In this document: positions 6,475-64,000 of the stretch, one piece after another
How the letters are laid out: each line of letters opens with the position of its first letter
Numbering within the stretch: the stretch's first letter is position 1
Sequence record: NC_070874.1
DNA from: Escherichia phage vB_EcoP-ZQ2
Strand: one strand, 5' to 3'
DNA length: 64,000 nucleotides
The notes under the pieces: generated by a model
Database searches by the model: none
What the model was told of the DNA's origin: nothing
The model's input: the letters and a program-made list of their open reading frames with translations, nothing else
Position numbers and translations under genes: made by a program

Positions 6475-8826
6475 ATGAACGAAATGTTCTCACAAGGTGG
6501 TAAAGGCTCCACTGGTATACTTACCAATAAGCAAGCCATTGCCCGTAAGTTTGGTGTTAAGCAGAATGAAGTAGTCTACTTTGCTGTAGGTGTAGACTTA
6601 GGTGGTTACAAAGTAATCTATGATAAGACTACCCAGCGTGCTTACTCATTGCCCGTACTTCCTTCAGGAACCACTGCTGTAAGTCTTAGCAACCAGGCAG
6701 TCCTGGTTCATTCAGCAGGTACAGTTGATTTAGGGGAACTGGCTGCTACATGCAGGGAGTTCGTGAACTTGTCTGACACGTTTGCTACTGGTTTGGTGGT
6801 AAATACTAGAAATGAATTACTATTTCATAATGGTATAGGTTATTCATATTTAGGTTCTCTACCTGTAACTATTACCGCAGGAACTAACCCTGTTGGCAAT
6901 GCAGACTGGAAGCCACAAACTGATCCTAATTTGAGAGAAGATTTATCTTCACCTGACCTAAATAAGGGAGCTTCTCTTGTTACTTTCCACTACTTAGGCG
7001 ATACGGTGGAAAGCACATTAGGTAACATTCAATCAGTACCTTTTGAGCATTTCGGCGGCGGAACCTCAAAAACTGGGGAAGAAAACACCGCTGCTTTGAA
7101 AGCGGCTATCTCTTCACAGTTTAAGCACATTTGGTTTAATAACGGTCCCTATACTTTCTCTGGGGATACTAATTTTACTGGAATCAATGGTAAAATTTTT
7201 GAGTCTAATACAAACGCTGCTTTTGTTTTCTCAGGTTTATTTTTTAACTTCAAATCTCCAGTGGACACCGAGTTCAGGGGGATCACGTTCAGTGCTCCTC
7301 CTACCAATACGGTGTTAAACTCCGTGACTCTTAGTAACTTCACTAATATTAAATTTACTAAGTGTAAGTTTCTTGGTTTTGGGGGAGACACTACAAATAC
7401 CGCAGGTAGTGCAGCACTCATACTTTATGCTGGTGATTCCGAGACGGCCCAGTATGCTGCTGGTAGTTCTACTGGTGCTGTTCTTGATGGGTGCTATTTT
7501 GACGGCCTTCGCGACCGTTTGTGTAACTTCGCGGTTAGGGTCTACACAGAATTTACTGTGCCGACTGCATCTATTGCAACTAATTCCAATAATAAAATCA
7601 TTAACTGTGATTTTGTCGGGCATAACTGGAACGCAGTTGAAATAGCCGGGCCTAGTACCCACAGCAACATTGTTAGTAACTGTTCAGCTACTAACCCAGG
7701 ACTGTGCCCATTTGACCTGGATAAAGGGACGCACGATAACATCGTAGAAAATATTACGATACGTAATTTGAAAGGAGACCTTGGCGTAAGTGGGTTCACC
7801 CGCGCGTCGGCTGTCAACATTCAGGGTGCCACTGCTGACACCTACTTTGCATACAATAACACCGTTAGAAATGTAACATGTGTCACAACTAAGGATAATA
7901 TCGACGCGTATAACGCCACCGGTTTTGGTTCCGGGTTCGCTGCTGTTAGTCTGGCATACTGCTACAACAACTTTGTAGATAATGTCACTATGACATGTAA
8001 CGGTGGTGTTCCGACCAAACCATCAAATGGCACAATGGCATTCTGTCATCTCACGTTTGAATCTATATCCGGGTGTACCGTTAATCGGGTGTCTACGGTT
8101 AACGCGTCTCATGGCATATTAATGACTTCATTCAAAAGTCAATCTATGTCGGCACTTAACGAGCCAAATCATTTTTCCACGTTCCGTAACTCTGGGGCCA
8201 ACCTAGAAGGTGAAATATTTTACGGGTATGCTACCGCAGCGGGTAGTCCATTGAAGATTATCCTCAATGACATAGACCTAACTACATCTGGTGCTCAAAG
8301 TAACCTTACGTACAACGGACACAAATATGCAATTGTGTACCGCACAGCTGGAAGCTCTGTTAACTATTTAAGGATTGAGGAAAGCCGCATCGGATTAGCT
8401 ACTGATTCTAATCTCTGGTTTGCTATGTGCACAGGGCCGCAAATTGGTTTGCGAGAGGTGCAAATCCACGATGGCAACGGTACAGCGAATGTTAATAGTC
8501 GTTTTATGGAATCCAATGGTTTGTCATTAATAACAAATATTGCTATCGATAACGTATATGGGGATCTAGAGAGAAAACCTATCCAGATACAGACGGCGTT
8601 AGCCGGGCTGACGGGTGGTACGTTTAAACTTGTTGGTGGGATTTCGGATAGTGGGTTACCACAATCTAGACCTGTTACGTTATTCGCCAATTCAGCAACC
8701 ACATTCCCATCAGCTGCTCAGTTTGATACGAATATAATCTTACGTCGTACATCGGCTACTACGGGCCAAGCGTGGGGATGGATTAGCACAGGAACAGCGT
8801 GGGCAGCGTTAGGCTCACTGACGTAG
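6475..8826 (+). CDS. tailspike / receptor-binding protein, probable right-handed beta-helix
   Basis: 783 aa; repetitive N/T/G/V-rich beta-solenoid-like sequence (NIVSNC, NIVENITIRN); position after first fiber gene. Confidence 0.5.
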   Translation: MNEMFSQGGKGSTGILTNKQAIARKFGVKQNEVVYFAVGVDLGGYKVIYDKTTQRAYSLPVLPSGTTAVSLSNQAVLVHSAGTVDLGELAATCREFVNLSDTFATGLVVNTRNELLFHNGIGYSYLGSLPVTITAGTNPVGNADWKPQTDPNLREDLSSPDLNKGASLVTFHYLGDTVESTLGNIQSVPFEHFGGGTSKTGEENTAALKAAISSQFKHIWFNNGPYTFSGDTNFTGINGKIFESNTNAAFVFSGLFFNFKSPVDTEFRGITFSAPPTNTVLNSVTLSNFTNIKFTKCKFLGFGGDTTNTAGSAALILYAGDSETAQYAAGSSTGAVLDGCYFDGLRDRLCNFAVRVYTEFTVPTASIATNSNNKIINCDFVGHNWNAVEIAGPSTHSNIVSNCSATNPGLCPFDLDKGTHDNIVENITIRNLKGDLGVSGFTRASAVNIQGATADTYFAYNNTVRNVTCVTTKDNIDAYNATGFGSGFAAVSLAYCYNNFVDNVTMTCNGGVPTKPSNGTMAFCHLTFESISGCTVNRVSTVNASHGILMTSFKSQSMSALNEPNHFSTFRNSGANLEGEIFYGYATAAGSPLKIILNDIDLTTSGAQSNLTYNGHKYAIVYRTAGSSVNYLRIEESRIGLATDSNLWFAMCTGPQIGLREVQIHDGNGTANVNSRFMESNGLSLITNIAIDNVYGDLERKPIQIQTALAGLTGGTFKLVGGISDSGLPQSRPVTLFANSATTFPSAAQFDTNIILRRTSATTGQAWGWISTGTAWAALGSLT

Positions 8827-8834
8827 TAAAATAA

Positions 8835-8858
8835 AAGGCCCATTTGGGCCTTTTCTTA
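8835..8858 (+). terminator. rho-independent terminator
   Basis: AAAGGCCC-ATTT-GGGCCTTT hairpin followed by T-run, 9 nt after tailspike stop. Confidence 0.65.
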
Positions 8859-9071
8859 TATAGAGTTTACTGTTTGCATTACCCTAACTGATACTGCTGT
8901 TAGGGTAATTACTTGCCCAAAGATATTAAGCATACCTAGCTGAATACCATCCCCCATGTATTGATGCCAGACACTATGTCTGGATGTACCCCAACATACT
9001 AAGTATTATCTAAGAGTCATCTTATGATATGGCCCTATTGGGAATTCTAACTACACAACTACGGTAATATT

Positions 9072-9401
9072 ATGAATGAATCAGGTGAACTGCTTCTAGT
9101 CAGACTGGAGGAACGATTGAAGACTCTGTTTGATAACCAGGCAAGAGACAGACAGGACCGTGAGAAACTAGAGGAAACTCTGGTGGAACTACGGGATTCA
9201 ATCAATGACATAGGTAATAGACTAAAGAATGTGGAGGATAGCTTAGCTAAGAATGAACCTACTATTGAAGAGTTCATCACCATTAAGCATAAAGTTGTTG
9301 GTGCTGGAATTTTTGGTAAGTGGGTATGGGCTGGGGCAGGTGCAATTATTGGTGTATTGGCTGCTGCAAGACGGGAGATATTCGCATGGTTCGCAGGCTA
9401 A
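9072..9401 (+). CDS. lysis-cassette membrane protein (holin/antiholin candidate)
   Basis: 109 aa; N-terminal coiled coil plus C-terminal hydrophobic segment GAGIFGKWVWAGAGAIIGVLAAA; stop overlaps next start. Confidence 0.4.
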   Translation: MNESGELLLVRLEERLKTLFDNQARDRQDREKLEETLVELRDSINDIGNRLKNVEDSLAKNEPTIEEFITIKHKVVGAGIFGKWVWAGAGAIIGVLAAARREIFAWFAG

Positions 9402-9646
9402 AAAGAAAAGTAGAGTTAGTACCTAACTGGAAAAGATGCTGGAAATGGGCATCCATTCAGATTAGTACACTCGGGTTAATTATGTTTTCTGCCATAGATA
9501 TCATTCAACCAATGCTGACAGGATTACCTCGTCACATCCTAGAAGATATTCCCCATGGTTCCAATATTGCAATCGCACTGTTTGCCTTAAGCATCGTAGG
9601 CAGATTAATACGATTCCGTCCGAAGGAAGATTCACATGAAAGCTAA
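9386..9646 (+). CDS. putative holin (two TMD, pinholin-like)
   Basis: 86 aa from internal ATG of ORF 9320..9646; two hydrophobic helices; directly upstream of and overlapping the endolysin start. Confidence 0.45.
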   Translation: MVRRLKRKVELVPNWKRCWKWASIQISTLGLIMFSAIDIIQPMLTGLPRHILEDIPHGSNIAIALFALSIVGRLIRFRPKEDSHES

Positions 9647-10271
9647 ACAGAAACTTGCTGCGAAAGGTGGTGCAGTGGGAGGGGTTGTCGCTGCTATCCT
9701 GGGGGCAGTGTTCTATATGGAAGGGGGATATGTAAACAATCCTCGTGACCCAGGTGGTGAAACCAATCATGGCATTACCCAGGCAGTAGCTAAATCTCAC
9801 AAAGAAGTTCTGGCTACTGAATACGGCTGGGATGGTTCTATGAAAGGTTTATCTAAAGAGATGGCTGCTGAGATATACATTGATGACTACGTACTTAAGC
9901 CTAACTTCGTAGCTTTCGCTGATATATCTCCTGCTGTAACTCATAAGCTGATAGATGCTGGTGTTAACACTGGTGTAACTCGTCCAGCTAAGTGGTTGCA
10001 GTTATCTCTTAATGAAATGTCCCGTGATGGCAAAGACTACCCTAAAATACAGGTTGATGGTAAAGTCGGTACAAGCACTGTTAATGCATATAAAGCATTA
10101 CAGAAAAAACGAGGCAAAGTTGCAGCATGTCAGGTAATGATTAAATTACTAGATGCTAAACAACTAAACCACTACACCTCATTAAACATGCCAGACTTTA
10201 CATATGGTTGGGTAGCTAACCGAATAGGCAATGTGCCACTGGAGGCGTGTAATGAAGATGCTAATCTCTAA
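9636..10271 (+). CDS. endolysin, GH108-type N-acetylmuramidase with N-terminal signal-anchor (SAR-like) region
   Basis: EGGYVNNPRDPGGETNHGIT motif typical of GH108; Gly/Ala-rich weakly hydrophobic N-terminus. Confidence 0.7.
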   Translation: MKAKQKLAAKGGAVGGVVAAILGAVFYMEGGYVNNPRDPGGETNHGITQAVAKSHKEVLATEYGWDGSMKGLSKEMAAEIYIDDYVLKPNFVAFADISPAVTHKLIDAGVNTGVTRPAKWLQLSLNEMSRDGKDYPKIQVDGKVGTSTVNAYKALQKKRGKVAACQVMIKLLDAKQLNHYTSLNMPDFTYGWVANRIGNVPLEACNEDANL

Positions 10272-10758
10272 AGGTTGGCCTTATCTTCTGGTGGTGGTCC
10301 TGGGGGCCACCATTTACTTTTGGGGTAATTCCAATGGACAGTCTACTGTTCAAAAGAAGTGGGATGCCCAAAAGGTTGAAGACCAAAAGGCAACACAAAA
10401 ATTACAGGACAAATACAATGCTCTCCAAAGAAACCATAGTTATGAAGTCGGGTTACTCACTTCCCGGTTGCAGACGGCTGAGAGTAATTACGCAAGCGAG
10501 CTTGCTCGCGTTAGCAGTGATTATGACAGCCGGATGCAACAGTCTGAAAGACGAGCATCGGTATATAAACGTCAAGCCGAAGCCGGAACCTTTGAGTGCA
10601 GAAGTCTTGCAAGCCATGCAGCCAGACTCGACAACAGTCTTGAAGAAGGCAGACGTTTGGTTGAAGAACTCAGGGCAACTGTTAGACTCCGTGACAGCCA
10701 ACTAATTGAGTTGGGTAAACAGATTCAGGCTGACCGTAAACTTTTTGAACAGGAATAA
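10231..10758 (+). CDS. i-spanin (Rz-like)
   Basis: 175 aa; N-terminal TMD then charged coiled-coil region; overlaps endolysin end. Confidence 0.6.
10418..10705 (+). CDS. o-spanin (Rz1-like lipoprotein) embedded in +1 frame within Rz
   Basis: signal peptide ...[12 protein letters not shown] with lipobox-like Cys, proline-rich mature part; fully embedded in 10231..10758; start codon uncertain (10418 or 10442). Confidence 0.5.
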   Translation: MLSKETIVMKSGYSLPGCRRLRVITQASLLALAVIMTAGCNSLKDEHRYINVKPKPEPLSAEVLQAMQPDSTTVLKKADVWLKNSGQLLDSVTAN

Positions 10759-10760
10759 CT

Positions 10761-13031
10761 ATGGAACACCAAGACACTTTTAAGCCTTTACCAGACCCGG
10801 CTCAATCAGAGAAGTTAACGGACTGGAAAAAGGAACCAAGTATCCAATTACTGAAAGGTGATTTGGAATCAGCCAAACCTGCTCACGATGCAATCATGGC
10901 TCAGATTCGTGAGTGGAATGACTTAATGGAAGTCAAAGGCAAGGCTAAACCCCCAAAGGTTAAAGGACGTTCACAAGTCCAACCTAGACTGGTTCGCCGT
11001 CAGGCAGAATGGCGTTATGCACCATTATCCGAACCATTCCTCTCATCCAATAAACTCTTTAAAGTAACCCCTGTTACTTTTGAAGATGAGTTAGCTGCAC
11101 GTCAGAATGAACTAGTTCTTAACTACCAATTCCGTACTCAGCTTAATAAAGTAAAACTAGTAGACGATTACGTTCACAGTGTCGTAGATGATGGTACTGG
11201 TATTGCTCGCATTGGTTGGGAACGTAAGACTGTTAAGATTAAAACAGAAACACCAGTCTTCCAGTTGTATCCAATTGAGAACCAGGAACAAGCAGATATT
11301 CTTCAACGGGCTTTGCAGCTTCAGGCAGAGAATCCTCGTGAGTATGATGAAACAATGCCTGAAGATATTAAGGAAGCTGTTAACTACTTCAATGAAACTG
11401 GAGAAGCTACCTATGCAATCCAGACTGGAGTTACTGAAGTAGAGGTAGAGAAAGCACTGGTTAACAGACCTACTGTTGAAATGCTTAATCCCAATAACGT
11501 AGTTATTGACCCAAGCTGTAATGGAGACTTGGACAAGGCTCTGTATGCAGTTATCTCATTTGAGACTTGCAAAGCAGACCTAATGAAGAACAAGGACCGT
11601 TACCACAACCTGGATAAGATTGACTGGGAAAGTTCTAGTCCTATGACTGACCCAGACCATGAAAGTAAAACTCCTGGTGATTTCCAGTTTAAGGATGCAC
11701 TTCGTAAGAAAGTAGTTGCTTATGAATACTGGGGATTTTATGACATTAACGATGATGGTTCACTGGAACCAATTGTTGCTACCTGGATTGGTTCTACTCT
11801 TATCCGTATGGAGAAGAACCCATTCCCGGATGGTAAGTTACCTCTGGTAGTTGTTCCTTACATGCCACGTAAACGTGAACTCTTTGGTGAGGCTGATGCC
11901 GAACTGTTAGGAGATAACCAAGCAATTCTTGGTGCAACTATGCGTGGGATGATTGACCTGTTGGGTCGAAGTGCAAATGGTCAACGAGGGTATCCTAAAG
12001 GGATGTTAGATACTCTGAACCGACGTCGATATGATGATGGACAAGACTATGAATACAACCCAATGCAAGGCAATCCTAGTCAGGCCATTATGGAACATAA
12101 GTTCCCTGAGTTACCTCAGTCGGCAATAATAATGACTCAGATGCAAAACCAGGAAGCAGAAGCACTAACTGGTGTTAAAGCATTTTCTGGTGGTGTAACT
12201 GGTGCAGCTTACGGAGATGTGGCTGCTGGTATTCGTGGTGCACTTGATGCAGCATCCAAACGTGAGATGGCAATCCTTCGTCGATTAGCTAAGGGTATGG
12301 CAGACATTGGTACTAAGATTTGTGCAATGAATGCTGTGTTCTTATCAGAAAAGGAAGTAGTACGTATTACTAATGAGCAGTATGTAGAAATTAACCGTGA
12401 AGACCTTAAAGGTAATTTCGACATTGAGGTTGATATTAACACTGCTGAAATTGATAACCAGAAGTCCCAAGACTTGAGCTTCATGGTTCAAACATTAGGT
12501 AATACAGTTGACCAGACTATTACGTTATCTCTTGTAGCTAAGATTGCAGAACTTAAACGTATGCCTGACCTTGCTCATGAATTACGTACCTGGAAACCAC
12601 AGCCAGACCCTATGGAAGAACAGCTTAAGCAATTAGCAATTCAGAAAGCACAGCTTGAGAATGAAGAGTTGAAAAGTAAAATTGCACTCAATAATGCTAA
12701 GGCTAAAGAAGCTATTTCTAGTGGTGACCTTAAAGACCTGGATTATCTGGAACAGGAATCTGGTACTAAACATGCTCGTGATATGGAAAAACAAAAAGCA
12801 CAATCTCAAGGAAACCAGAACCTTCAAATAACTAAGGCGTTGACAACACCTACTAAAGAAGGTGAAACTACCCCCAACATATCTGCTGCTGTCGGATATA
12901 ACGCTTTGACTAACGGGAACTCTTTACAGGAACGTGACTTAGCTGCACAGCAAGACCCGACTTATTCACTTAGTTCCCAGTATTATGACCCTAGCCAAGA
13001 CCCAGCATCGGCTCTTGGTATGAACTTATAA
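10761..13031 (+). CDS. portal protein (N4 gp59-like)
   Basis: 756 aa, position between lysis cassette and scaffold/capsid genes. Confidence 0.65.
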
Positions 13032-22624: not shown

Positions 22625-25600
22625 TTGAACAGGAATCATGCTATGTCAACATTTGACCGTCTGGCAGGTTTCGCAGACAGCATCACTACTGCTAAGCAAG
22701 TCGATGTCTCTACTGCAACCTCTCGGAAACAAGCTGAACAAGGGCAAAACCCTTTCCAATTAACCCCACAGAACGCCTACCAGTTACAGGCAGGTCGTGC
22801 CGGTGATTTAGGTGCTGGTGCATTTGACCCAGGTTCTATTCAGGCAGATTTTACTAATGCCTCTCCTCTTGAAATCATAAACAAGTATGGCAATGAGCAA
22901 GGAATGGACATTCTTAATGCTCGTGTCAATGCAGCTAATGCTGTTCGTCGTGATTTAACTAAGAGTCGTACATATGGTGAAGCACTTGGTGATACCCTTT
23001 CTGGTGTTGGTCTTGGTGTTGCTAATACCCTTGGGGGCATTGCTGCTCTTGGCACAGGCTTGGTCAATGATAATGCCGGGGCATCCATTGCTTCCGGTCT
23101 TGACTGGTTGAACAAAGGTGTACACAACCTACAGTCTGATGCACTGAATGCTCGTCGTAATGTAGTACAGAACCAGAACGTAATATCTGCACAGGAAAAC
23201 GAAAAACAATATAAGCAGGATATTGATAAAGGAGAAAGTGAACTCGTTGCTTCCTTGTCTCGTATTGGTCGGGATGCTTACGATTCAGTTGCTAATACTT
23301 TGTCCAATGGCATGGCTGCTACAGATGGTATTGCTGAAGGTGTTGGTTCACTGTTTACTGGTGGTCCACTTATCCGTGGTGTATCTGCACTTGGTAAAGT
23401 AATGGTAGGTGGGGATAAAGCTGTTAAGGGTATTACCTTAGCTGCTGAATTAGGTTATCGTCCTGCACGTATTGCACAGACTGCTGGTCGTGTTGCTGCA
23501 CCTGCTATAGCAATTGGTGGTATGGAAGCTGGTGGTGCATACCAACAGACTGCTAATGAAATTATGGAAATGCCATTCAGTGAACTGGCTGCTAAATCTC
23601 CTGTATACCAACAACATATTAAAGATGGTTTAACTCCTGAAGAAGCACGACGTCAGACTGCATCTGAAACAGGTATCACTGCTGCTGGCTTAACCGCCCC
23701 AGTTGCTGCTCTCACTGGTCCACTGGTATCCAAGTTTGAACTTAACCCACTTAAGGTAGGTTCACTGGCTGGTGCTGGTTCTAACATGCTACGTGAGACT
23801 GTGGAGGAAGGTATTCAATCCGGTTTCGGTCAATTCGCACAGAACAAAGCAATTCAGGGTAACGTGGATGCTAATCGTGATTTGCTTAAAGGTGTAGGTG
23901 AACAAACTGGTCTAGGTGCATTGTATGGCTTTGGTTCTGCTGGGGTTGCTCAAGCTCCTGGTGTAACTGCTAAGACTGCCGTTGCTGCCGTTGGTCCTGC
24001 TGTACGTACTACCCTGGCTGGTGCTTCTCTGGCTGGTAAGGCACTAGCAAAAGTAGCTTCTCCTATTACTAACATTCTGGTTCAGCGTGGAGAAGAAGTT
24101 GCTAAGCGAAATGAGCAAGCATCTCCTGTATCAGACGTTACGGTTAATGCTGCTGCACAAGAAGCTACTGCTCAGGCAGAACAGGCTCAAGCAACTGTTC
24201 AGGAAGCAGTAGATGCAATGGACATTTCTCCAGAAGAGAAAGCTGCTGCTACTCAGTATGCTGCTGACTTAACTCAGGCAATGAAGTTTGACCCAGTAGA
24301 ACTGGAACAAGCTAGTCCAGCAATCCGTGAAGCTGTTTCTGGTTCCACTAACCGTGTTGAAGCTATTCAGAAGATGGCTGACCTGGTTAATACTGCCGAA
24401 GATCCTAACGTTCAAATGGAAGCTGCAATCCAGATGTATGACAACATCATGTCTATGGATAGCTTCATTAACCGTGACCCAGGTGCATTAGCTAATCTGG
24501 AACAGGGTTCTCCTGCTGCTAATATTGTTGACCAGTTCTCCGGTCTGATGGCTAACGTTCAGAATACACCGAAGGTACTTCGTGCATTCCGTGCCATCCA
24601 TTCCATGATTCAGGAACAGGCAGAAGCAGGTAAACTGAAGGCTACTGAAGAAGCTAACCAAGCCCAAGCAAACAACATTGCTATGGCTGCTGATATGTCT
24701 CCAGAAGTACTGGATGCTGATTCAGTGAACATGGTTCTGAAACACGCAAGTGAAGGTAAGATTACGCTGGGGAATCGTCAGCGTGCTGCCCTGCAATCTG
24801 CTGCTGCTCTATTGCAAGGAGCACGAGAATTTGATGCTAAAGCAGAAGAGCTAGGCTTACGTCCTCAAGACATTGTTAGTAAACAAATTAAAACCGACGA
24901 ATCTCGTTCTAATGAAGGCCAGTACTCTGCGTTGCAACATGCTAAACGCATTCGTTCTGCGTATAACTCTGGTAACTTCGATTTGGCTTCCGCTTATCTC
25001 GATGACTTTATGAAGTTCGCCCAGCACATGCAGAATAAGGTCGGAGCGTTGAATGAGCATTTGATTTCTGGGAATGCGGATAAGAATAAGTCTGTCCATT
25101 ATCAGGCTCTTACTCCCTCCCGTGAATGGGTACGTAGTCGTACTGGCCTCGGTGTTAATCCGTATGATACCAAGTCTGTTAAGTTTGCCCAGCAAGTAGG
25201 ACTGGAAGCCAAGACCGTAGCTGATATTGCTAACGCACTTGCTACGGCTTACCCGGAGCTTAATGTTTCTCATGTGAAAGTTACCTCATTGGATTCACGT
25301 CTGGACAAGCCTGCTGCCCAGGTAGTTAAAGAGTTCCGTCAGGGCAATCTTGACGCTGCTCAATCCCAACAGACTAATGAACCAGTGAATCAGGTTGATG
25401 AAACTCCTGTTACAAAACAGGAACCAGTTACCCCTACTGTACAGACTAAACCCTCTGTTAGTGAAGCTGTTAAAACAGAACCCACTATTAAAGAGTCTAA
25501 ACCACAGTCTGTAAAAGAACCTGAGAACCAGTCTGAAAAACAGGATACCGTTGATCAGTCTACTGAATCTGAAAGGGATGCTTATGTAAAAGAGAATACT

Positions 25601-28600
25601 ATTTCTCAAGATACTCTTAATAAGTATGGCGACCGTAAAGAGAGTCCATGGCTCTTTGCTGATGGTACTGTTGTTGGTTCTAATGGTGACCACATTAGCT
25701 TGTCCGATGTATTTGGACATGATGGTTATCGTGATATGTCACTAGATACAGGTGCTATTCGCTCTACCTTCTACAAAGGAAGCGAGCAACCATTTGTATC
25801 ATTGCAACTGTTTGATAATCAGAAACTGACTACTGAACAGTTCAATACTGTTCAATCATTCGTAGAAGCAAACAATGCACTGATTCAGATTGGTGTAGAT
25901 ACATCTGGGCTTAATACCAATAACGTTGAGAAAGAAGAAGTATCACTGGCTCAATTGAAAGCAGACTATACCGTTGGTGGTAAACCTCTATCTCAAATGG
26001 AAACAGTGTTCCCTGTCTATAACAATGAAAAGACACCGAACCAGTTCCTTAAAGCATTCTCTCTACCGGAAGAACCTAAGTCCCGTACCATTGGTTCTGA
26101 ATCTCCTTTGACTGATGTTAAGAAAGCACTGTCTTCTGTTGCTCGCTTTGAATCATTCACTCAAAAAGAAAATAACGCTCTCACAAGTGATGTGATTAAG
26201 CGTTACCAGGACTTATTTGATTTTGGTGAAACTCTGAAGACTACTCTGTCTGACCGTCTGGCTAAGTTCCTTGCTAACAAGAATGTTGGTAAACGTTTTG
26301 CAGAAGGTACTGAGGCTAACCGTTGGGTAGGTGGTAAATTACTTAACATCGTAGAGAAAGACGGAGATACCTTTAAGTTCAATGACCAGTTGTTAGAGAC
26401 TGCTGTACTTGCTGGTCTGCAATGGCGACTGACTGCTACACAGAATGCTGCCATTAAAGACATGCAGGATGTGGCTGCAATTACTGGTGTAAATGCTTCC
26501 TTGTTACCAGAAGGTATCCTTGCAGAGTTTGAGAATGCTCAAACCTTAGTAGAAGCTACTAACTCACTGGCTCAAAAGATTGAATCTTATTGGGGTCTTA
26601 ACCGCAATGCTGATGCACCTCTGGGCTATACCAAAGGTATCCCGATGGCAATGGCTACAGAGATTCTGTCTTCCCTTATTGAGATGGGTGAAGTTAAAGA
26701 GTCCATGTTGGATGTGTCTGAAATTGACTCAGAATCTAATAAGACCATTGGCCTGTATACCATTGAGAAGCTGGATGATACCGACGCCATTAACAAATTC
26801 CCTACTGCTATTGAGGAAGCTGTCCTCATAGAACCAGAAGAGAAACTGTACCTGGGTGATGACATTCCTTCCGTGGCTCCTACTCAGTTACGTAACCCAG
26901 CTGTTCGTAATACCCCAGAACAGAAAGCTGCTCTTAAAGCAGAACAGGCTACAGAGTTCTTTGTACATACCCCAATGGTTCAGTTCTATGAGGCGTTAGG
27001 TAAAGACCGTATCCTCGAACTGATGGGTGCTGGTACTCTGAATAAAGAATTACTTAACGAGAACCACGCTAAATCGCTGGAAGGTAAGAACCGTTCAGTA
27101 GAAGACTCTTATAACCAATTGTTCTCTGTTATTGAACAGGTAAGAGCACAGAGTGAAGACATCTCTTCTGTGCCTATTCATTATGCATACAATATGACCC
27201 GTGTCGGTCGTATGCAGATGTTAGGTAAATATACCCCCCAATCAGCTAAGCTGGTTCGTGAGGCTATCTTACCTACCAAAGCTACCCTGGATTTATCGAA
27301 CCAGAACAACGAGGACTTCTCGGGCTTCCAGCTTGGACTGGCTCAGGCATTGGGTATCAAAGTTCATAAAATGACTCGTGAAACTATGTCAGAAGAACTT
27401 ACCAAAGCTCTGGAAGGTAAGCTGAAACCTGCTGTAGATATGATGGTTGAGTTTGATAAGTCTGGATACTTACCTACTGATGCAGTGGATATCTTGAGAA
27501 CATCTCTGGGTAATGATAAGTCCTTTGTAGCTCTCATGGCTCTTATGGAGTATGCCCGTTACCTTAACAGTGATGACCGTGCCAACTTTAATACTCCTCT
27601 GTACGTTGAAGCTGATGGTGTAACCAACGGACCAATCAACGCAATGGTATTAATGACAGGTGGTAAGTTCACTCCAAACTGGATTAAGAATACTGCCAAA
27701 GGTGGTTTGTTCTTCGGTAAAGCCGGTAAGACTATGAATGAGCATCATACTCAGGATGATAGTGTTGACCTGTATGAAGCATCTACCAATAGTCTGCAAT
27801 TCCATCTGAATGAATTACGTAATACTTATAGTAAGAATATTCCTGTTATAAACCAGATGGACCATCTCCAGAAGTTAATGGACCTGTTCATCAAAGACTT
27901 CAATCTTAATGAAGATGGTACTCTGGACCTGAAACGTGGTATCGCTAAAAACCCACTAACCATTACTATCTATGGTTCTGGTGCTCGTGGTATTGCAGGC
28001 AAAATGGTAAGTGCAATTACTGATACCATCTACGAGCGTCTAAGCGACGTTCTGAAAGCCCGTGCTGCTGACCCTAACATTTCCCCAGCTATGGCGATGT
28101 TTGGTAAGGAGGCTGCGTCTGAAGCCGATGCTCAGGCTAAGCTGGATACTTTCCTTACTTCTATGAAAGAACTGACTGGCAAGATTCCAGCCAAACGTAA
28201 AGGTAGGTTATTTATTAAGGAAGTAGAAGGTGCTCTGACTGGCAAGTTAAATCCTCAGAAGTTTACCGTATCAGGGGATGCTCTGAAGAACTTACAAGAG
28301 AATATGCTGCACTTCTTTGTTGAGCCAATGAGACAAGGTATTCGGTTTACTGTTGGTGAAGGATTAATGCACTCTACTGAGAACTTGCAGAAGGCTACCC
28401 AGATTCAATCTCTGGTATTGCAGGATATGTTCCAGCAAGCAGTACAGGCTAAGCTGGCAGAAAAAGAAAAAGACCCAACATGGAAGAAAGGTGATTTCTT
28501 AACACAGAAAGAACTGAATGAAATTCAGAATAGCTTAGCTCCTCTGGCTCCAATGATTAAAACTGGTTCGCAGACTTTCTACATTGCTGGTAGTGAGAAT

Positions 28601-31600
28601 ACTGATGTTGCTAACCAAGTATTGGCTACTAACTTAGATGACCGTATGCGTGTACCAATGAGCATCTATGCTCCTTCGCAAGCAGGTGTTGCAGGTATTC
28701 CATTTATGACCATCGGTACTGGTGATGGCATGATGATGCAGACTCTTTCTACTATGAAAGGTGCTCCGAAGAATACCCTGAAAATCTTTGATGGTATGAA
28801 CATTGGTATTAATGACATTACTGATGCAAGCCGTAAAGCTAATGAGGCTGTATATACTTCCTGGCAGGGTAACCCTATCAAGAATGTATATGAGTCTTTC
28901 TCTAAGTTTGTTAAGAATGTTGATTTAAATAAGCTGTCCGATTCAGCAATAGATGCTATTGCAAAGTCTGCTTTAGACTTTGAGCAGCGTGCTCATATTG
29001 CCAGGGTAGATGGTGATAGAGATTATAAAATTTCTATGATTAGAGATTCTGGTATTGCATTAATTGAGCGTAACCTACGTAACATTGCTTTGGGTGTAGA
29101 TATTCGTCACAAGGTAATGGACCAGGTACAAGTCACTGTTGACCAGATGGCTGCTGTAGGTGCTCCTTATGTGAACAACGGTAAAATCTCTCTGGAAGGT
29201 CTGACTATAGACCAGCAAGTAGCCAAGCTGAACGAACTGTTTGATGCTGAATTAAACAAGCGTCGTGATGCAGTACGTGCTGCTAAAGCGGAACCAACGA
29301 AGGCAGAACCAGTGAAGGAAGTGCCGGTGAAAGTTGTACCAGCTATGGAGAAGGTAGGTCGTGTACTGAAGTCTGGTGTACGTCTGCTGTCTAATACTGC
29401 TATCACTAAGCTGGCTAAAGAAATGACCCCTGATCAGCAAGCAGTATTGAAAGAAATACAGAAATCCCTTGCTGCTAAAGACTATAAGGTTGTTTACGGT
29501 ACACCTTCTCAACTGGATGCTTATGCCATTGAGAAGAATATTACTCGCCCAGCACCGGAAGATATTGAAGCTGCTGAAGCTGGTAATGCATACGGCTGGA
29601 CTAACTTTGAAGATAAGACCATCTACTTAGTTACCCCTTCCTTAGAGACTCTGGTTCATGAATTAGTACATGCCTCTACTTTTGAATCTGTGCTGGCTCA
29701 CTACGAGGGTACTCCTAATGAAGCAGTCCAGAATATTGAAGACTTGATGAACCAGTTCCTTACTCTGGATGTTAAGGATGAATCTCCGGCAGTACGTGAA
29801 GCGTATGCCGATGCACTGAATACCATTAATGGTCACCTGTCTAATGGCTTCATTGAACCAGCAATGGCTAAAGCTGCTGCTCTGAATGAGTACATGGCTT
29901 GGGGTTTAACCAACCGTGAACTTATTAGTAAGCAGAAGAAAACCACTGCACTTAAAACTATGGTTCAGGCTGTATATGAAGCAATCAAACGTCTGGTATT
30001 TGGGCGTAAGAAAGCTCCAGCTAATGCAGATGATATGTTCTCAGGCTTACTGTTTAACTCTGCTGTAGTAATGCGTGGGCAGGCTCCTACTGCTGCTGTA
30101 GCTAAAGACACTACTCTGTTCCATAACAAAGCATACGGTAACAATACTCGTCTGGAAGAGTTAGGTAAGACCTTCGATAAACTAATTACTGACTACATTG
30201 GTTCAGAACCAGTACAGCAAGTAATTCGTAAAGGTAAGTTCTCTGATGCAGTAGTGAATGCAACTAAAGTAACTCGTGATGTTCAGGCTCATGGCTTCAC
30301 CATGAATATGCAGGAACAGCGTCTATTTACTAACATTGTTGCTGCACTTGCTACTGAGGCTGCTATTAACCCAGCAGCCATGGCTCGTGCACAGGAATAC
30401 TACACGCATGTTACTAAGAACTTGACCGTTGAAGCGTTCATGGCTGACCCAGATAGTACTAACCCTGCTGACCGTTACTATGCACAACAGAAGTTCGACA
30501 CCATCATGGGTGCTAACAACATTGAGTTTGATGCACAAGGTCGTTCTTCCTTACTGCCTACCTTTGTTGGTCTGGCAATGGTAAGTGAAGAGGTACGTAA
30601 GGTACTGGCTGATATTCCTGTTATGAAAGCAGATAAGAAATCAGGTAATACTGTTGACGCAATGCTGACTAACATCGGTACTGCTGCAATGGTTAGTCTG
30701 AATGCTCGTGTAGCAGGTGATACTAAAGCCACTAACGTGCGGGAAGGTATGGATGCACTGGCTCAGACAATTATGGAGACTAGCCTTAATGCACAATCTT
30801 TCTATGATTCCGTTGCTACCCCTACTGGTAATGCTATCGACCGTGCTAACCAATATCTGGTGGATTCTATTGATGTACTGTCTACTCGTACTTTGGAAGG
30901 TGCTCGTGAAGTTGCAGCTAATACCAAGAACCCACTAGTTAAAGGTGCTGCTCATGCTGCACAATTGGTAGCTGCTATTGCTACAGAGAAAAATGGTGCA
31001 ATTGTAGCTGAGGGTGTTATGGCTGCAATGAACCAGGGTAAAGTATGGCAACCGTTCCATGACCTGGTTAATGACATAATCGGTCGTACTAAGAGCAATG
31101 CTTCTGTATACGATTTGATTAAAGCAGTACGTGCACAGGTGCAAGCTGACCGTCAACAGTTCCGTGAGCATTTGCCTACCACTATCGCATCTAAGTTCAG
31201 CCGTAAGCTGACTAATGATGAGTGGAAAGCAATGCATACCGGTATGGGTAAAACTGACTTAGCTGTTCTTCGTGACACTATGTCTCTGGCTGAAATCCGT
31301 GACCTGTTGACTGACCAGAAGATTGTTGACCGTGAGGTTAATAAACTGGAAGCAGATTTGCAGAAGCAAGCCGGACGTAACTGGCCTCTGATTAGTCGTA
31401 AGTCTAAGCAACTGGCTCAGTACATGATTAATGGTACAGTCGGTAATAACCTGCTGCGTAATGCTACTGCAATTTCTCGTTTACTGGGTGAACGTAAGAC
31501 TACACGTTCTGTTGTAGATGTAGCACAACTGGATAAATTGATTACCCTGTATGCACTGGAAGCAATGAATAAGACTGACCGTGAGATGTTATCTTCACTG

Positions 31601-34645: not shown

Positions 34646-34872
34646 TAGTAGCTTTAACGCAGCTAACGAGGCTAGGCCAGTTAACTATTACCACCGGTGC
34701 TTGTACCAGCAAACAGGATTGATAGTCCGATAATAGATAACTGTATTTGAGCATTATAGTCTACTCATACTCACACCGATAGGTATGTTTTCAATAGCTA
34801 GAGTGCCGGACTGTCTCACCGGCATTGTCTTTAGAGTGCAATGCAATCAGGACTATGTTCTCTATTAATGAG

Positions 34873-34946
34873 TACCCACTACTGGATTTGAACCAGTGAC
34901 TTTCCAATTATTAGTTGGTTGCTTTCCCCGTCTAAGCTAAGTGGGC
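34873..34946 (-). tRNA. tRNA, 74 nt, anticodon read as AAU (Ile-type, atypical A34)
   Basis: hand-folded cloverleaf: acceptor GCCCACT/AGTGGGT (one G-U), D-stem GCTT/AAGC, anticodon stem CCAA/TTGG with loop CTAATAA, T-stem ACTGG/CCAGT with loop TTCAAAT, discriminator A. Confidence 0.6.
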
Positions 34947-62438: not shown

Positions 62439-63532
62439 AGAGAACTCTTGCCCCAGTACCTGAGACAGGATGAAGCCCAGCAAGTCACTCTTAGCAATGT
62501 CAGATAGAATCTGATTGTACTGACGACGCAGGTCATTACCGTAGTTAGGATGACATCTAAAACCATTAGTTAAACGAGTCGTTAGCTCGCCCTTACCTTC
62601 CATGATTAACATGGAAGCCATACGTAGCATCTGCTTCTTTACGAGCAAGCATTGCCTCCTCAAGTGTGTCATACGTACCCAGACCAATCTGTTTACGATT
62701 GACTGTGATGTGTGCCTGGAATCTACCAGAAGGCAATATTCTTACACCATTCACTTTGCTTGATGTATTACGTGATAAACCCATATTCATCTGGTTCTGT
62801 CTACTGGTTACATTTCTCAGATTAGACCAACGGTTGTCGTTTCTAATGTGATTGATGTGATCCACCTGGTTAGGTGTTTCCCCTGTTTCCATTATCCAGA
62901 TTATTCGATGCAGTAAGTACTCTTTACGACCCAGACTAACAGATAAATAGCCTTCTTTGTGAGGATACCCCACAATTGTTCCGGCTAATCCACTAGCAGA
63001 GTCGAAACGATGAGTTACTAGCCCACTTTCTCTGTCATACCTTAAAACCTTCTTCAAAGATTCTCGGGTAATGGTATCCAAGTCTTTTATCAGGTTCTTA
63101 CAGGTAGGGCATAGGTGGCCTATTGGACTCTTTTTAGCATCATAGAAGTTGCAAACAAACTCATTAGAGCATTGCTTACAACTACAGATAGCTGTGTACT
63201 TACCAGTTTTACGTAATATTTGGGAGTTATCTAACATATGGATTCCTTAGTAATTTTGCATACAATTTCAGATTGTATCCTAACCAAGGAAGTAAGTCTC
63301 CGGTTTTCACCGGAGTATCGGACTATATCATCACCCACTAATCAGTGGGGCAAGGCGCTTGGGTGGTCACTTGACTCACCTACTCTACTCACATACGAAA
63401 TGTTTTCGATAGTCTCTGAACCTTCCCTCATGGAGGGCTTGGCTGCTGATTGGCATATCCATAGGACTTAGCTTTCCAGCAATTCACCTTGTTTTCGACA
63501 CGGATTACTCCGTGAAGGATCATTTATGTTTA
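62439..63532 (-). mobile_element. group I intron with HNH homing endonuclease ORF, inserted in the RNA polymerase gene (boundaries approximate)
   Basis: on minus strand in order: P2-like GNRA hairpin (63499..63514), P element GAATTGCTGGAAAGC (63471..63486), Q CCAATCAGCAGCC (63441..63453), R GGTTCAGAGACTA (63407..63422), P8 hairpin (63334..63349), S GATATAGTCC (63320..63329), P9 hairpin (63298..63315), then HNH ORF. Confidence 0.7.
62593..63237 (-). CDS. intron-encoded HNH homing endonuclease with N-terminal CxxC zinc-finger-like motifs
   Basis: ...YLSVSLGRKEYLLHRIIWIMETGETPNQVDHINHIRNDNRWSNLRNVTSRQNQMN...; CSCKQC and CPTC at N-terminus. Confidence 0.75.
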   Translation of the reverse strand: MLDNSQILRKTGKYTAICSCKQCSNEFVCNFYDAKKSPIGHLCPTCKNLIKDLDTITRESLKKVLRYDRESGLVTHRFDSASGLAGTIVGYPHKEGYLSVSLGRKEYLLHRIIWIMETGETPNQVDHINHIRNDNRWSNLRNVTSRQNQMNMGLSRNTSSKVNGVRILPSGRFQAHITVNRKQIGLGTYDTLEEAMLARKEADATYGFHVNHGR

Positions 63533-64000
63533 ATCATGTACAGTCATTACAGGGAATGGTTTCTTAGGCAGAGTGTCAATCATATCTGCTACTACCTTAC
63601 GGTCTACCAATGCAATGGTATTCGGGTCAAGGTAGTCCAGAATAGACAGTGACAGGAACCCAGACTTCTCATAATGACTCCAAATTTCCATAGTCATTTC
63701 CTGGTTCCCTGCGATAGCAGGATAATTGCTTGGCCCGATATCACATAGTTCACGTACATAGGCAACCAGTTTAGGGTCGAAGTTACAACGACGCAGCATC
63801 TCACGTACCACCATCCCATCAATAGAGTGAGTGATGTTAGCAGAGAGCATACGGGTCTTTTCTTCAGTACCCTGAACCATACGAGTGATGTCAAATGGTT
63901 TACCTAAGAAGTTAACAGTCTGTACTTCAGGAACCATGACCTTAATGACAGCGTGGAAGTTGTCAGGAAGTACCCATACGTAACGGTTGGCATCCGGATT
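63530..64000 (-). CDS. T7-like single-subunit RNA polymerase (N4 RNAP II large subunit-like), 5' exon, truncated by window edge
   Basis: frame open to window end; ...YVWVLPDNFHAV... and ...ITHSIDGMVVRE... resemble T7 RNAP ...HWVTPDGFPVW... and HSQDGSHLR/HDSFG regions; in-frame stop at 63530 is at the proposed 5' splice region. Confidence 0.55.
   Translation of the reverse strand, partial: NPDANRYVWVLPDNFHAVIKVMVPEVQTVNFLGKPFDITRMVQGTEEKTRMLSANITHSIDGMVVREMLRRCNFDPKLVAYVRELCDIGPSNYPAIAGNQEMTMEIWSHYEKSGFLSLSILDYLDPNTIALVDRKVVADMIDTLPKKPFPVMTVHD

Follow-up and report, generated by a model that had tools for sequence, protein, structure and literature searches.

Between the tailspike gene and the portal gene of Escherichia phage vB_EcoP-ZQ2 (the window analysed is the whole stretch of 64,000 nucleotides) lie five reading frames that are collinear with gp63, gp62, gp61, gp60 and gp60a of phage N4, and the order tailspike, gp63, gp62, gp61, gp60 (with gp60a inside it) and portal is common to the two phages (Table 1). 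Neighbouring genes overlap slightly: the gp63-like and gp62-like genes share 16 nt, and the last 20 nt of the endolysin gene also belong to the i-spanin gene. A complete lysis cassette had been predicted here from the DNA alone, and the features it described are present where it placed them, with two points corrected below. The cassette is already known, the roles of the five N4 homologues have been tested experimentally (Awuah et al., bioRxiv 10.1101/2025.11.12.688109), and the locus represents no new kind of system.

Table 1. Coordinates of the lysis cassette features in the window, with the basis of each assignment.
Feature	Position	Strand	Basis
Terminator-like palindromic hairpin	8833..8854	.	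terminator scan, RNA fold
N4 gp63 homologue, predicted pinholin/lysis-timing protein, 109 aa	9072..9401	+	68% identity to N4 gp63; phrog_5211
N4 gp62 homologue, predicted class II holin (two-TMD, N-in/C-in), 86 aa	9386..9646	+	61% identity to N4 gp62; DUF7940; phrog_1356
N4 gp61 homologue, predicted SAR-type GH108 N-acetylmuramidase, 211 aa	9636..10271	+	Pfam; 66% identity to N4 gp61
SAR segment of endolysin	residues 1-28, nt 9636-9719	+	hydropathy, composition
GH108 domain of endolysin	residues 24-113	+	PF05838
EGGY motif of endolysin	residues 29-32; Glu29 codon, nt 9720-9722	+	sequence
PG_binding_3 domain of endolysin	residues 117-196	+	PF09374
N4 gp60 homologue, predicted i-spanin, 168 aa	10252..10758	+	phrog_6197; 54% identity to N4 gp60; SD
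N4 gp60a homologue, predicted o-spanin, 95-aa precursor	10418..10705	+	+1 frame inside 10252-10758; 60% identity to N4 gp60a

Upstream, the cassette is set off by a 245-nt intergenic region from the tailspike gene, whose stop codon lies at 8826. Directly 3' of that stop, a palindromic hairpin (AAAAGGCCC-AUUU-GGGCCUUUU) folds at -14.1 kcal/mol, with z = -3.2 relative to shuffled sequences, and this putative terminator marks the upstream limit of the intergenic region. A scan of the plus strand between 8855 and 9071 for sigma-70-type promoters found none. A second hairpin, lying inside the Rz gene at 10290-10314, was rejected as a terminator because its fold is indistinguishable from that of shuffled sequences (z = -1.8).

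The source of the window is a Gamaleyavirus, a podophage of the G7C/N4-like type. Over positions 9072-10758, DNA identity to E. coli phages already published, including ECBP1, Bp4 and St11Ph5, is about 96%, and for ECBP1 it is 96.1% over 100% of the region's length; 87 phage records match the region, and the close matches are all Gamaleyavirus or other Schitoviridae. The Gamaleyavirus phages ECBP1, Bp4, St11Ph5, pSb-1 and UE-M6 carry the same cassette, with 95-96% DNA and 93-100% protein identity, and differ from the window within it by point changes only, Bp4 and UE-M6 having an additional minus-strand gene between tailspike and cassette. In a group of related loci (L005-L010), gp63 is only 68-77% identical to that of the window while endolysin and spanin are 94-98% identical, and the divergence of one gene beside near-identical neighbours points to mosaicism. 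All five reading frames, the embedded one included, are kept across 26 related loci, a conservation far beyond chance. Annotation of the cassette is uneven among GenBank relatives: the first gene is often mislabelled 'tail length tape-measure protein', a propagated misannotation, the 'Rz-like spanin' is at times a truncated fragment, and the o-spanin is often without annotation. The annotation of St11Ph5 contains all five genes, with boundaries equal to those proposed here.

The first gene of the cassette encodes a protein whose N-terminal domain, of about 75 aa, is hydrophilic and of coiled-coil type; one Gly/Ala-rich C-terminal TMD (VGAGIFGKWVWAGAGAIIGVLAAA) follows. The stretch PTIEEFITIKHKVVGAG.FGKWVWAGAG.IIG.LAAARREIFAWFA is nearly invariant among related loci, and over its last 48 residues the protein is almost the same as N4 gp63. 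In the 'LIN domain' next to the TMD, the N4 residues T65, I70, T71 and I72 are conserved. Asn replaces Ser62, the site of a rapid-lysis mutation in N4 gp63 (10.1101/2025.11.12.688109). Compared with N4 gp63, the N-terminal cytoplasmic part has diverged and lacks the candidate internal starts Met13 and Met17. The protein matches phrog_5211 (E=4e-50), a family of unknown function, and its Pfam matches (MIP-T3_C and others), all sub-threshold, were dismissed as coiled-coil noise. In experiments, N4 gp63 complements a defect in the phage 21 pinholin S21 and not a defect in lambda S, kills cells on its own, and sets the timing of lysis (10.1101/2025.11.12.688109). By homology to N4, the predicted pinholin of the cassette is thus the product of this first gene, which would form small holes.

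The original prediction had instead tied the idea of a pinholin-type system to the second gene, which encodes a small protein described as having two TMDs. The two segments are evident as computed hydropathy peaks at residues 22-40 and 59-77, with basic residues at the N-terminus and charged ones at the C-terminus, and the protein matches Pfam DUF7940 (E=1.4e-14) and phrog_1356, 'holin' (E=7e-30). Its counterpart from phage UE-M6, 93% identical, has been cloned and is growth-inhibitory, and a two-TMD, N-in/C-in topology was obtained for this UE-holin with DeepTMHMM (PMC12661215). Because this topology is that of class II holins, the phage 21 pinholin among them, and because PHROG and GenBank name the gene 'holin' and leave gp63 unnamed, the two-TMD protein could be read as an S21-like pinholin, with the first gene encoding a regulator (antiholin or activator) or a protein unrelated to holes; earlier work on N4 saw gp63 as an activator of gp61. 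The sequence shares with S21 its two TMDs in N-in/C-in arrangement, but not the Gly/Ala-rich SAR-type TMD1 that goes with small holes: TMD1 (ASIQISTLGLIMFSAIDII) contains 3 Gly/Ala in 19 residues, and neither Pfam nor PHROG searches link the protein to S21. The behaviour of the N4 homologue also argues against this reading. With N4 gp62, both holin defects are complemented late, and R21 and the soluble lambda endolysin of 17.8 kDa are both freed; it triggers only after about 2 h and is dispensable, lysis being kept when it is deleted, and none of the N4 rapid-lysis mutants mapped to it (10.1101/2025.11.12.688109). Release of the soluble lambda endolysin R indicates that the holes made by N4 gp62 are large, and it is gp63, as described above, that kills alone, complements only the pinholin defect and sets timing. 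A pinholin role for the two-TMD protein is therefore distinctly improbable. By homology to N4 gp62, it is predicted to be a late-triggering, non-essential, large-hole holin, with the gp63-like protein as pinholin.

The start of the gp62-like gene is placed at 9386, where the SD duplex is -7.4 kcal/mol, as against about -3 kcal/mol at two upstream candidates, GTG 9320 and ATG 9326. A longer isoform beginning at either codon is possible but poorly supported, and on balance unlikely: a stop codon interrupts the upstream extension in four related loci (L013-L015 and L023), and, compared with N4 gp62, the candidate long form of the window starts with GTG and a weak SD.

The product of the third gene combines a GH108 domain (E=6e-20, scoring 72 bits where the cutoff is 21.2) with a PG_binding_3 domain (E=1.2e-7, 32.2 bits for a threshold of 24.6), and the GH108 signature reported earlier, EGGYVNNPRDPGGETNHGIT, corresponds to residues 29-48 (nt 9720-9779). 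This architecture is common to two solved structures of bacterial, TtsA-type, holin-associated GH108 muramidases, PDB 6v3z (Sen1395; E=1e-26) and 6v40 (E=7e-20), which also share the motif EGGYVN.P.D.GG.T..GIT with the endolysin; the alignments run through EGGY over residues about 20-197, and start at query residue 23 for 6v3z and 19 for 6v40, with most of the N-terminal segment outside. Assignment to the NCBIfam equivalog NF040573, 'holin-associated N-acetylmuramidase', was rejected, as a score of 57 bits against a 240-bit cutoff places the endolysin outside that subfamily; an NCBIfam search of the other four cassette proteins gave no match. The endolysin is 97% identical to UE-lysin of phage UE-M6, which has been cloned and for which lytic activity is reported (PMC12661215).

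A Gly/Ala-rich, signal-anchor-like segment had been described at the N-terminus of the endolysin, and composition and hydropathy agree with it. The protein begins with MKAKQKLAAK, with 4 Lys among the first 10 residues, and continues with GGAVGGVVAAILGAVFY, which is 53% Gly+Ala and has a 19-residue Kyte-Doolittle peak of 1.78; basic residues thus precede a weakly hydrophobic, Gly/Ala-rich TMD, as in SAR domains. This N-terminus is kept in related phages, as read by direct inspection of the loci, since tblastn masked the low-complexity segment. Relative to N4 gp61, it has 3 extra residues, and its start codon is ATG where that of N4 is GTG. The N4 endolysin was first described by Stojkovic & Rothman-Denes in 2007, and has muramidase activity, both as cited in 10.1101/2025.11.12.688109; the same study identifies gp61 as a SAR endolysin that works with a pinholin or a large-hole holin, is membrane-associated and leaks out slowly when expressed alone, and in which substitutions that place a charge in the SAR segment, such as G12E, make lysis rapid. 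The layout of n-region and h-region, and the small residues (LGA/V) ahead of EGGY, would also suit an ordinary Sec signal peptide that is cleaved, or a signal anchor that never leaves the membrane, with lysis controlled elsewhere. Such an arrangement is very unlikely, given a Gly+Ala content typical of SAR domains and an N4 homologue whose corresponding N-terminus (KKVGGVGGVIAAIIAAVFAVEGGY) shows the membrane association, slow leakage, pinholin compatibility and G12E phenotype just described. SAR tethering and release, and muramidase activity, are accordingly features that the endolysin of the window is predicted to share with N4 gp61.

The fourth gene encodes the predicted i-spanin, or Rz equivalent. 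Its N-terminal TMD spans residues 3-24 (Kyte-Doolittle 1.61), a helical domain is assigned to the periplasm, and residue 116 is the only Cys. The protein matches phrog_6197, 'Rz-like spanin' (E=5.5e-78), and the Pfam family DUF2514 stays sub-threshold (15.9 versus 26 bits). Here the original prediction, which had Rz extend from 10231 to 10758, was right about the reading frame and its end; the start is most likely 10252. A GGAGG at 10241-10245 precedes ATG 10252, for which the duplex is -9.3 kcal/mol as compared to +0.1 kcal/mol for 10231, and the Met of 10252 is conserved in every related locus examined, whereas that of 10231 is not. ATG 10231, which opens the longest ORF (175 aa), was rejected on both counts, and the start at 10252 matches the annotation in St11Ph5 and UE-M6.

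The small lipoprotein ORF that had been predicted as an embedded o-spanin, the Rz1 equivalent, is read in frame +1 and falls entirely inside the i-spanin gene. It has a PROSITE-type lipobox (MTAG/C), with the codon of Cys40 at 10535-10537, and a mature lipoprotein of 56 aa. The mature region is not proline-rich, as had been proposed, since 4 of its 56 residues (7%) are Pro, in essence those of KPKPEP plus one more. Under the Lol sorting rule, Asp at position +2 is the signal for inner-membrane retention; residue +2 of the o-spanin is Asn (CNS), which differs from that signal, and an outer-membrane location is predicted. The o-spanin has two candidate starts, 10418 and 10442. Met 10418 is conserved, while Met 10442 is lost in ECBP1 and one other locus (L012), and the SD values are -4.0 and -0.9 kcal/mol, respectively; a start at 10418 puts the lipobox Cys at residue 40, outside the 15-35 usual under the PROSITE rule, and one at 10442 would give a precursor of 87 aa. 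ATG 10334, the first of the +1 ORF (SD -6.0 kcal/mol), was rejected because in several loci, L005-L008 among them, a stop codon separates it from the lipobox region.

The +1 frame could in principle be open by chance and go unexpressed, with the outer-membrane step carried out by Rz alone or absent. It is not annotated in ECBP1, Bp4, UE-M6 and Moo19, among other GenBank relatives, its product matches no family in Pfam, PHROGs or NCBIfam, and its SD is modest. Conservation, however, makes this exceedingly improbable. All 26 loci keep the frame open, the lipobox Cys is invariant among them and the mature length is always 56 aa. Diversity at Rz codon positions 1, 2 and 3 is 0.33, 0.30 and 0.44 before the overlap and falls to 0.17, 0.11 and 0.14 over the mature o-spanin, the drop at the third position (0.44 and 0.35 outside the overlap) being confined to the mature part. 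In L021, L025 and L026, which are distant relatives, identity is higher for the embedded frame than for its host (59% versus 38%, 65% versus 51% and 54% versus 42%, respectively). Thus a dual-coding constraint lies exactly over the mature o-spanin, and both frames are under selection. The N4 pair, gp60 and gp60a, likewise an embedded two-component spanin, complements lambda Rz/Rz1 (10.1101/2025.11.12.688109), which further argues for an expressed o-spanin in the window.

Taken together, the locus is very probably an N4-like (Gamaleyavirus) late-gene lysis cassette, five genes directed at three envelope layers, that most likely works as in N4, where E. coli carrying the cloned gp60-63 genes lyses in about 25 min (10.1101/2025.11.12.688109). 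The earlier view of the locus as a pinholin-type system, with a holin-like pair, a membrane-anchored endolysin and embedded spanins, agrees with the N4 experiments on the collinear homologues. The functional steps are proposed by homology at 54-68% identity to the N4 proteins. The endolysin would be exported via Sec and tethered by its SAR segment, inactive, on the periplasmic side of the inner membrane, with the EGGY motif directly at the membrane boundary. The gp63-like protein, anchored by its C-terminal TMD with the N-terminal helical domain in the cytoplasm, would accumulate and, at a set time, form small holes. These would make the membrane potential collapse and so release the SAR endolysin synchronously, whereupon its GH108 muramidase domain would degrade the peptidoglycan. 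The gp62-like protein would serve as an accessory holin, a late trigger that makes larger holes. In the final step, the i-spanin in the inner membrane and the o-spanin lipoprotein in the outer membrane would form a complex spanning the periplasm that, once the wall is gone, disrupts the outer membrane.

Regulation of the cassette may differ from that in N4, because G7C-type phages are reported to lack the lysis inhibition seen in N4. The missing Met13 and Met17 of the gp63-like protein, its Asn at the position of Ser62, and the GTG start and weak RBS of a long, antiholin-like gp62 are candidate causes that could explain prompt lysis, and the Gamaleyavirus cassette would then be a naturally occurring version of the N4 system in which lysis inhibition is lacking by virtue of its gp63 and gp62 differences. 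Were this so, swapping those features between N4 and the window phage would interconvert prompt and hours-delayed lysis. The idea is an unlikely one. Rapid-lysis mutations of N4 also map outside the cassette, to the vRNAP gene and the terminal repeat (10.1101/2025.11.12.688109), and the cause of prompt lysis may therefore lie elsewhere. The cassette could serve as a comparison partner for N4, one without lysis inhibition, in work on the regulation of the gp63 pinholin.

The main value of the analysis lies in the correct annotation of the cassette, with boundaries and roles drawn from the N4 experiments and from comparison. The N4 cassette occupies the same place, between tailspike or tail genes and the portal gene, and has similarly short gene overlaps; its gp60a has the lipobox TIVGC where the window has MTAGC, and in both a mature o-spanin of 56 aa is embedded in the +1 frame. 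The S21/R21 system of phage 21 follows the same logic, in that a small-hole former depolarises the membrane and frees a tethered endolysin, but S21 has two TMDs where the pinholin candidate of the window has one, at its C-terminus, and R21 is of the lysozyme type whereas the enzyme of the window is a GH108 muramidase. In lambda, as in the window, the o-spanin gene (Rz1) lies in the +1 frame of the i-spanin gene (Rz). Mature lambda Rz1 has about 40 aa, about 25% of them Pro, and a disulfide-forming Cys, unlike the mature o-spanin of the window, which is longer, poor in Pro and without an internal Cys. No sequence relationship was found between the phage 21 and lambda systems and the proteins of the window. 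The N4 homologues complement defects in S21, in R21/R and in Rz/Rz1 (10.1101/2025.11.12.688109).

The lysis cassette at 9072-10758 is genuine and complete, and was rightly recognised from raw sequence in the original prediction; every feature listed there is present, and the collinear homologues of phage N4 have been tested experimentally. In the ORF list of the raw sequence, the plus-strand genes are packed tightly between a tailspike-like ORF and the portal ORF, with successive overlaps of 16, 11 and 20 nt, taking the probable Rz start at 10252, and the portal ATG lies 2 nt past the stop of the last cassette gene. Identity between window and N4 proteins is 68% for gp63, 61% for gp62, 66% for gp61, 54% for gp60 and 60% for gp60a. 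The remainder of the window is compatible with an N4-like genome and includes a 3611-aa ORF as large as the virion RNA polymerase.

Coordinates of the lysis cassette and other features of the window
Feature	Position	Strand	Remarks
Tailspike-like ORF	6475-8826		783 aa
Hairpin	8833-8854		-14.1 kcal/mol, z = -3.2
Intergenic stem	8967-8983		7 bp, 3-nt loop, -10.8 kcal/mol, z = -2.3
Cassette gene 1 (gp63-like)	9072-9401	+	109 aa
gp62-like gene	9386-9646	+	86 aa; longer ORF opens at GTG 9320
Endolysin gene	9636-10271	+	211 aa
Rz, longest ORF	10231-10758	+	175 aa
+1-frame ORF within Rz ORF	10334-10705	+	
Portal ORF	10761-13031		756 aa
ORF of virion RNA polymerase size	22625-33460		3611 aa
tRNA-Ile gene	34872-34946	-	anticodon AAT
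Insertion	62590-63560	-	~970 bp
ORF in insertion	62593-63237		214 aa
Group I intron match	63298-63541		RF00028, 91.8 bits

The cassette is preceded by a 245-nt intergenic region, on the plus strand of which no sigma-70-type promoter was found. Directly 3' of the tailspike stop, a palindromic hairpin (AAAAGGCCC-ATTT-GGGCCTTTT), with an A-run and a T-run on its sides, looks like a bidirectional intrinsic terminator. A second stem, CCAGACA-CTA-TGTCTGG, lies in the intergenic region. A GC-rich hairpin of 11 bp with a T-rich tract after it (10290-10314), within the sequence coding for the i-spanin transmembrane domain (TMD), was also flagged as terminator-like; its z of -1.8 does not clearly set it apart from shuffled sequence, and it is probably incidental.

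We judge experiments on the collinear N4 genes to be the decisive evidence on function. Lysis of E. coli by the cloned N4 gp60-63 cassette takes about 25 min; gp61, a signal-arrest-release (SAR) endolysin, functions together with a pinholin or with a large-hole holin, leaks out slowly if produced alone and causes rapid lysis when a charge is introduced into its N-terminal segment, and gp60/gp60a form an embedded i-spanin/o-spanin pair that complements lambda Rz/Rz1, the mature o-spanin being 56 residues long (bioRxiv 10.1101/2025.11.12.688109). The window endolysin carries the predicted GH108 signature, EGGYVNNPRDPGGETNHGIT, at residues 29-48; Pfam places both GH108 (E=6e-20) and PG_binding_3 (E=1.2e-7) above their gathering scores, and alignments to the solved GH108-type muramidases 6v3z (E=1e-26) and 6v40 (E=7e-20) run through the EGGY motif. 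Its N-terminus, MKAKQKLAAK followed by GGAVGGVVAAILGAVFY, likewise bears out the predicted Gly/Ala-rich segment, with 53% Gly+Ala in GGAVGGVVAAILGAVFY and four lysines before it. In the relative UE-M6, whose lysin and holin are 97% and 93% identical to the window proteins, the cloned proteins are reported to have GH108/PG_binding_3 domains and the topology of a class II holin with two TMDs, and to show lytic or growth-inhibitory activity (PMC12661215).

The small two-TMD protein of the original prediction was also found, as the 86-aa product with hydrophobic segments at 22-40 and 59-77 and matches to Pfam DUF7940 and the PHROG holin family phrog_1356. The pinholin-type system proposed for it agrees with the behavior of the N4 homologues, but the role was probably given to the wrong gene: judged by those homologues, the pinholin is most likely the gp63-like product. 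N4 gp63 has a single C-terminal TMD, complements only an S21 pinholin defect, is lethal to cells alone and determines lysis timing, whereas gp62, with two TMDs, complements both holin defects but needs about 2 h to do so, and can be dispensed with (bioRxiv 10.1101/2025.11.12.688109). The gp63-like TMD and adjacent 'LIN domain' are almost unchanged from N4, with T65, I70, T71 and I72 kept and S62 replaced by Asn. Because the window genes are homologous to those studied in N4, the cassette most likely works by the N4 mechanism, in which a membrane tether would hold the SAR endolysin at the inner membrane, the gp63-type pinholin would depolarise the membrane and free it, the gp62-type protein would act as an accessory late holin, and the spanins would disrupt the outer membrane.

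A 109-aa long form of gp62 with alternative starts is considered by the N4 authors (bioRxiv 10.1101/2025.11.12.688109). In the window, ATG 9386 has a good Shine-Dalgarno sequence (-7.4), but GTG 9320 and ATG 9326, which would open the long form, lack one (about -3). Four relatives have a stop codon within the upstream extension. Since the extension lies over the strongly conserved TMD segment of the preceding gene, its apparent conservation cannot be counted as separate support.

For the spanins, the predicted Rz ORF is real, but its start is probably ATG 10252, which is preceded by GGAGG (-9.3 kcal/mol) and is Met in every related locus, rather than ATG 10231, which lacks a Shine-Dalgarno sequence (+0.1 kcal/mol) and a conserved Met. 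The +1-frame ORF within it carries a lipobox ending in Cys. Intervening stops in relatives exclude ATG 10334 as the o-spanin start; Met 10418 is conserved with a modest Shine-Dalgarno sequence (-4.0), Met 10442 is missing in ECBP1 and one further locus (L012), and either start gives an identical mature protein. To call that protein proline-rich was an overstatement (4 Pro in 56 residues, 7%).

Comparison with 26 related loci (N4 and AlfredRasser, Moo19 and Jgk1, one Achromobacter and one Erwinia N4-like phage, three Gamaleyavirus GenBank records and 17 IMG/VR contigs) gave tblastn matches for all five frames wherever expected. The +1 frame is open, the lipobox Cys invariant and the mature o-spanin exactly 56 aa in 26/26, and among the most distant loci conservation is higher in the embedded than in the Rz frame (59% vs 38%, 65% vs 51%, 54% vs 42%). 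When 23 distinct Rz genes are aligned by codon, their mean pairwise diversity (codon positions 1/2/3) is 0.33/0.30/0.44 before the overlap, 0.34/0.24/0.42 over the o-spanin signal peptide, 0.17/0.11/0.14 over the mature o-spanin and 0.18/0.08/0.35 after the overlap. The Rz wobble position, codon position 2 in the +1 frame, thus loses its freedom precisely across the part coding for the mature lipoprotein, a constraint that, in this alignment, marks the region as truly dual-coding.

Megablast of 8900-10900 matched 87 phage records, the near matches being Gamaleyavirus (Schitoviridae, Enquatrovirinae), G7C/N4-like podophages, and the top match E. coli phage ECBP1 (96.1% identity, 100% of the query). 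The five gene boundaries of St11Ph5 correspond to those of the window (10252-10758 and 10418-10705 for the spanins), under the labels gp63, gp62 (holin), gp61 (N-acetylmuramidase), gp60.2 (Rz-like spanin) and gp60.1 (Rz/Rz1 spanin). Annotation errors are systematic across the GenBank records of relatives (Bp4, ECBP1, UE-M6, Moo19): the gp63 homologue is named 'tail length tape-measure protein' in Bp4 and UE-M6, Rz in Bp4 and ECBP1 is a 74-aa C-terminal fragment only, labelled 'Rz-like spanin', and the embedded o-spanin is absent from most relatives' annotations. The cassette is mosaic: in six IMG/VR Gamaleyavirus contigs (L005-L010), identity to the window is 94-98% for the endolysin and spanins, 81-85% for gp62 and 68-77% for gp63, the gp63 divergence lying mostly in the N-terminal cytoplasmic part.

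Elsewhere in the window, the gene for an N4-type RNA polymerase II subunit A contains an insertion with a full-length Rfam group I intron match and an ORF annotated as an HNH endonuclease in the sole matching record. It is present only in Shigella phage Moonfish among 55 matching phage records (91% identity, 100% cover); ECBP1, Bp4, UE-M6 and others give two-piece matches to this region (38-39% cover) and therefore carry intron-less alleles. ARAGORN found a single tRNA gene, with an unusual anticodon; Rfam confirmed it as a tRNA (62 bits).

Several differences separate the window from N4. The gp63-like protein has diverged in its cytoplasmic N-terminal part, which has neither Met13 nor Met17 of N4, the latter an 'alternate start' according to the N4 authors (bioRxiv 10.1101/2025.11.12.688109); the candidate long gp62 form starts with GTG; and the endolysin N-terminus is longer by three residues. 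G7C-type phages, unlike N4, are reported to be without lysis inhibition, and N4 rapid-lysis mutations also map outside the cassette (bioRxiv 10.1101/2025.11.12.688109). The sequence differences might conceivably account for the absent lysis inhibition; the cassette itself is of the known N4 type, in a genome ~96% identical to published phages.
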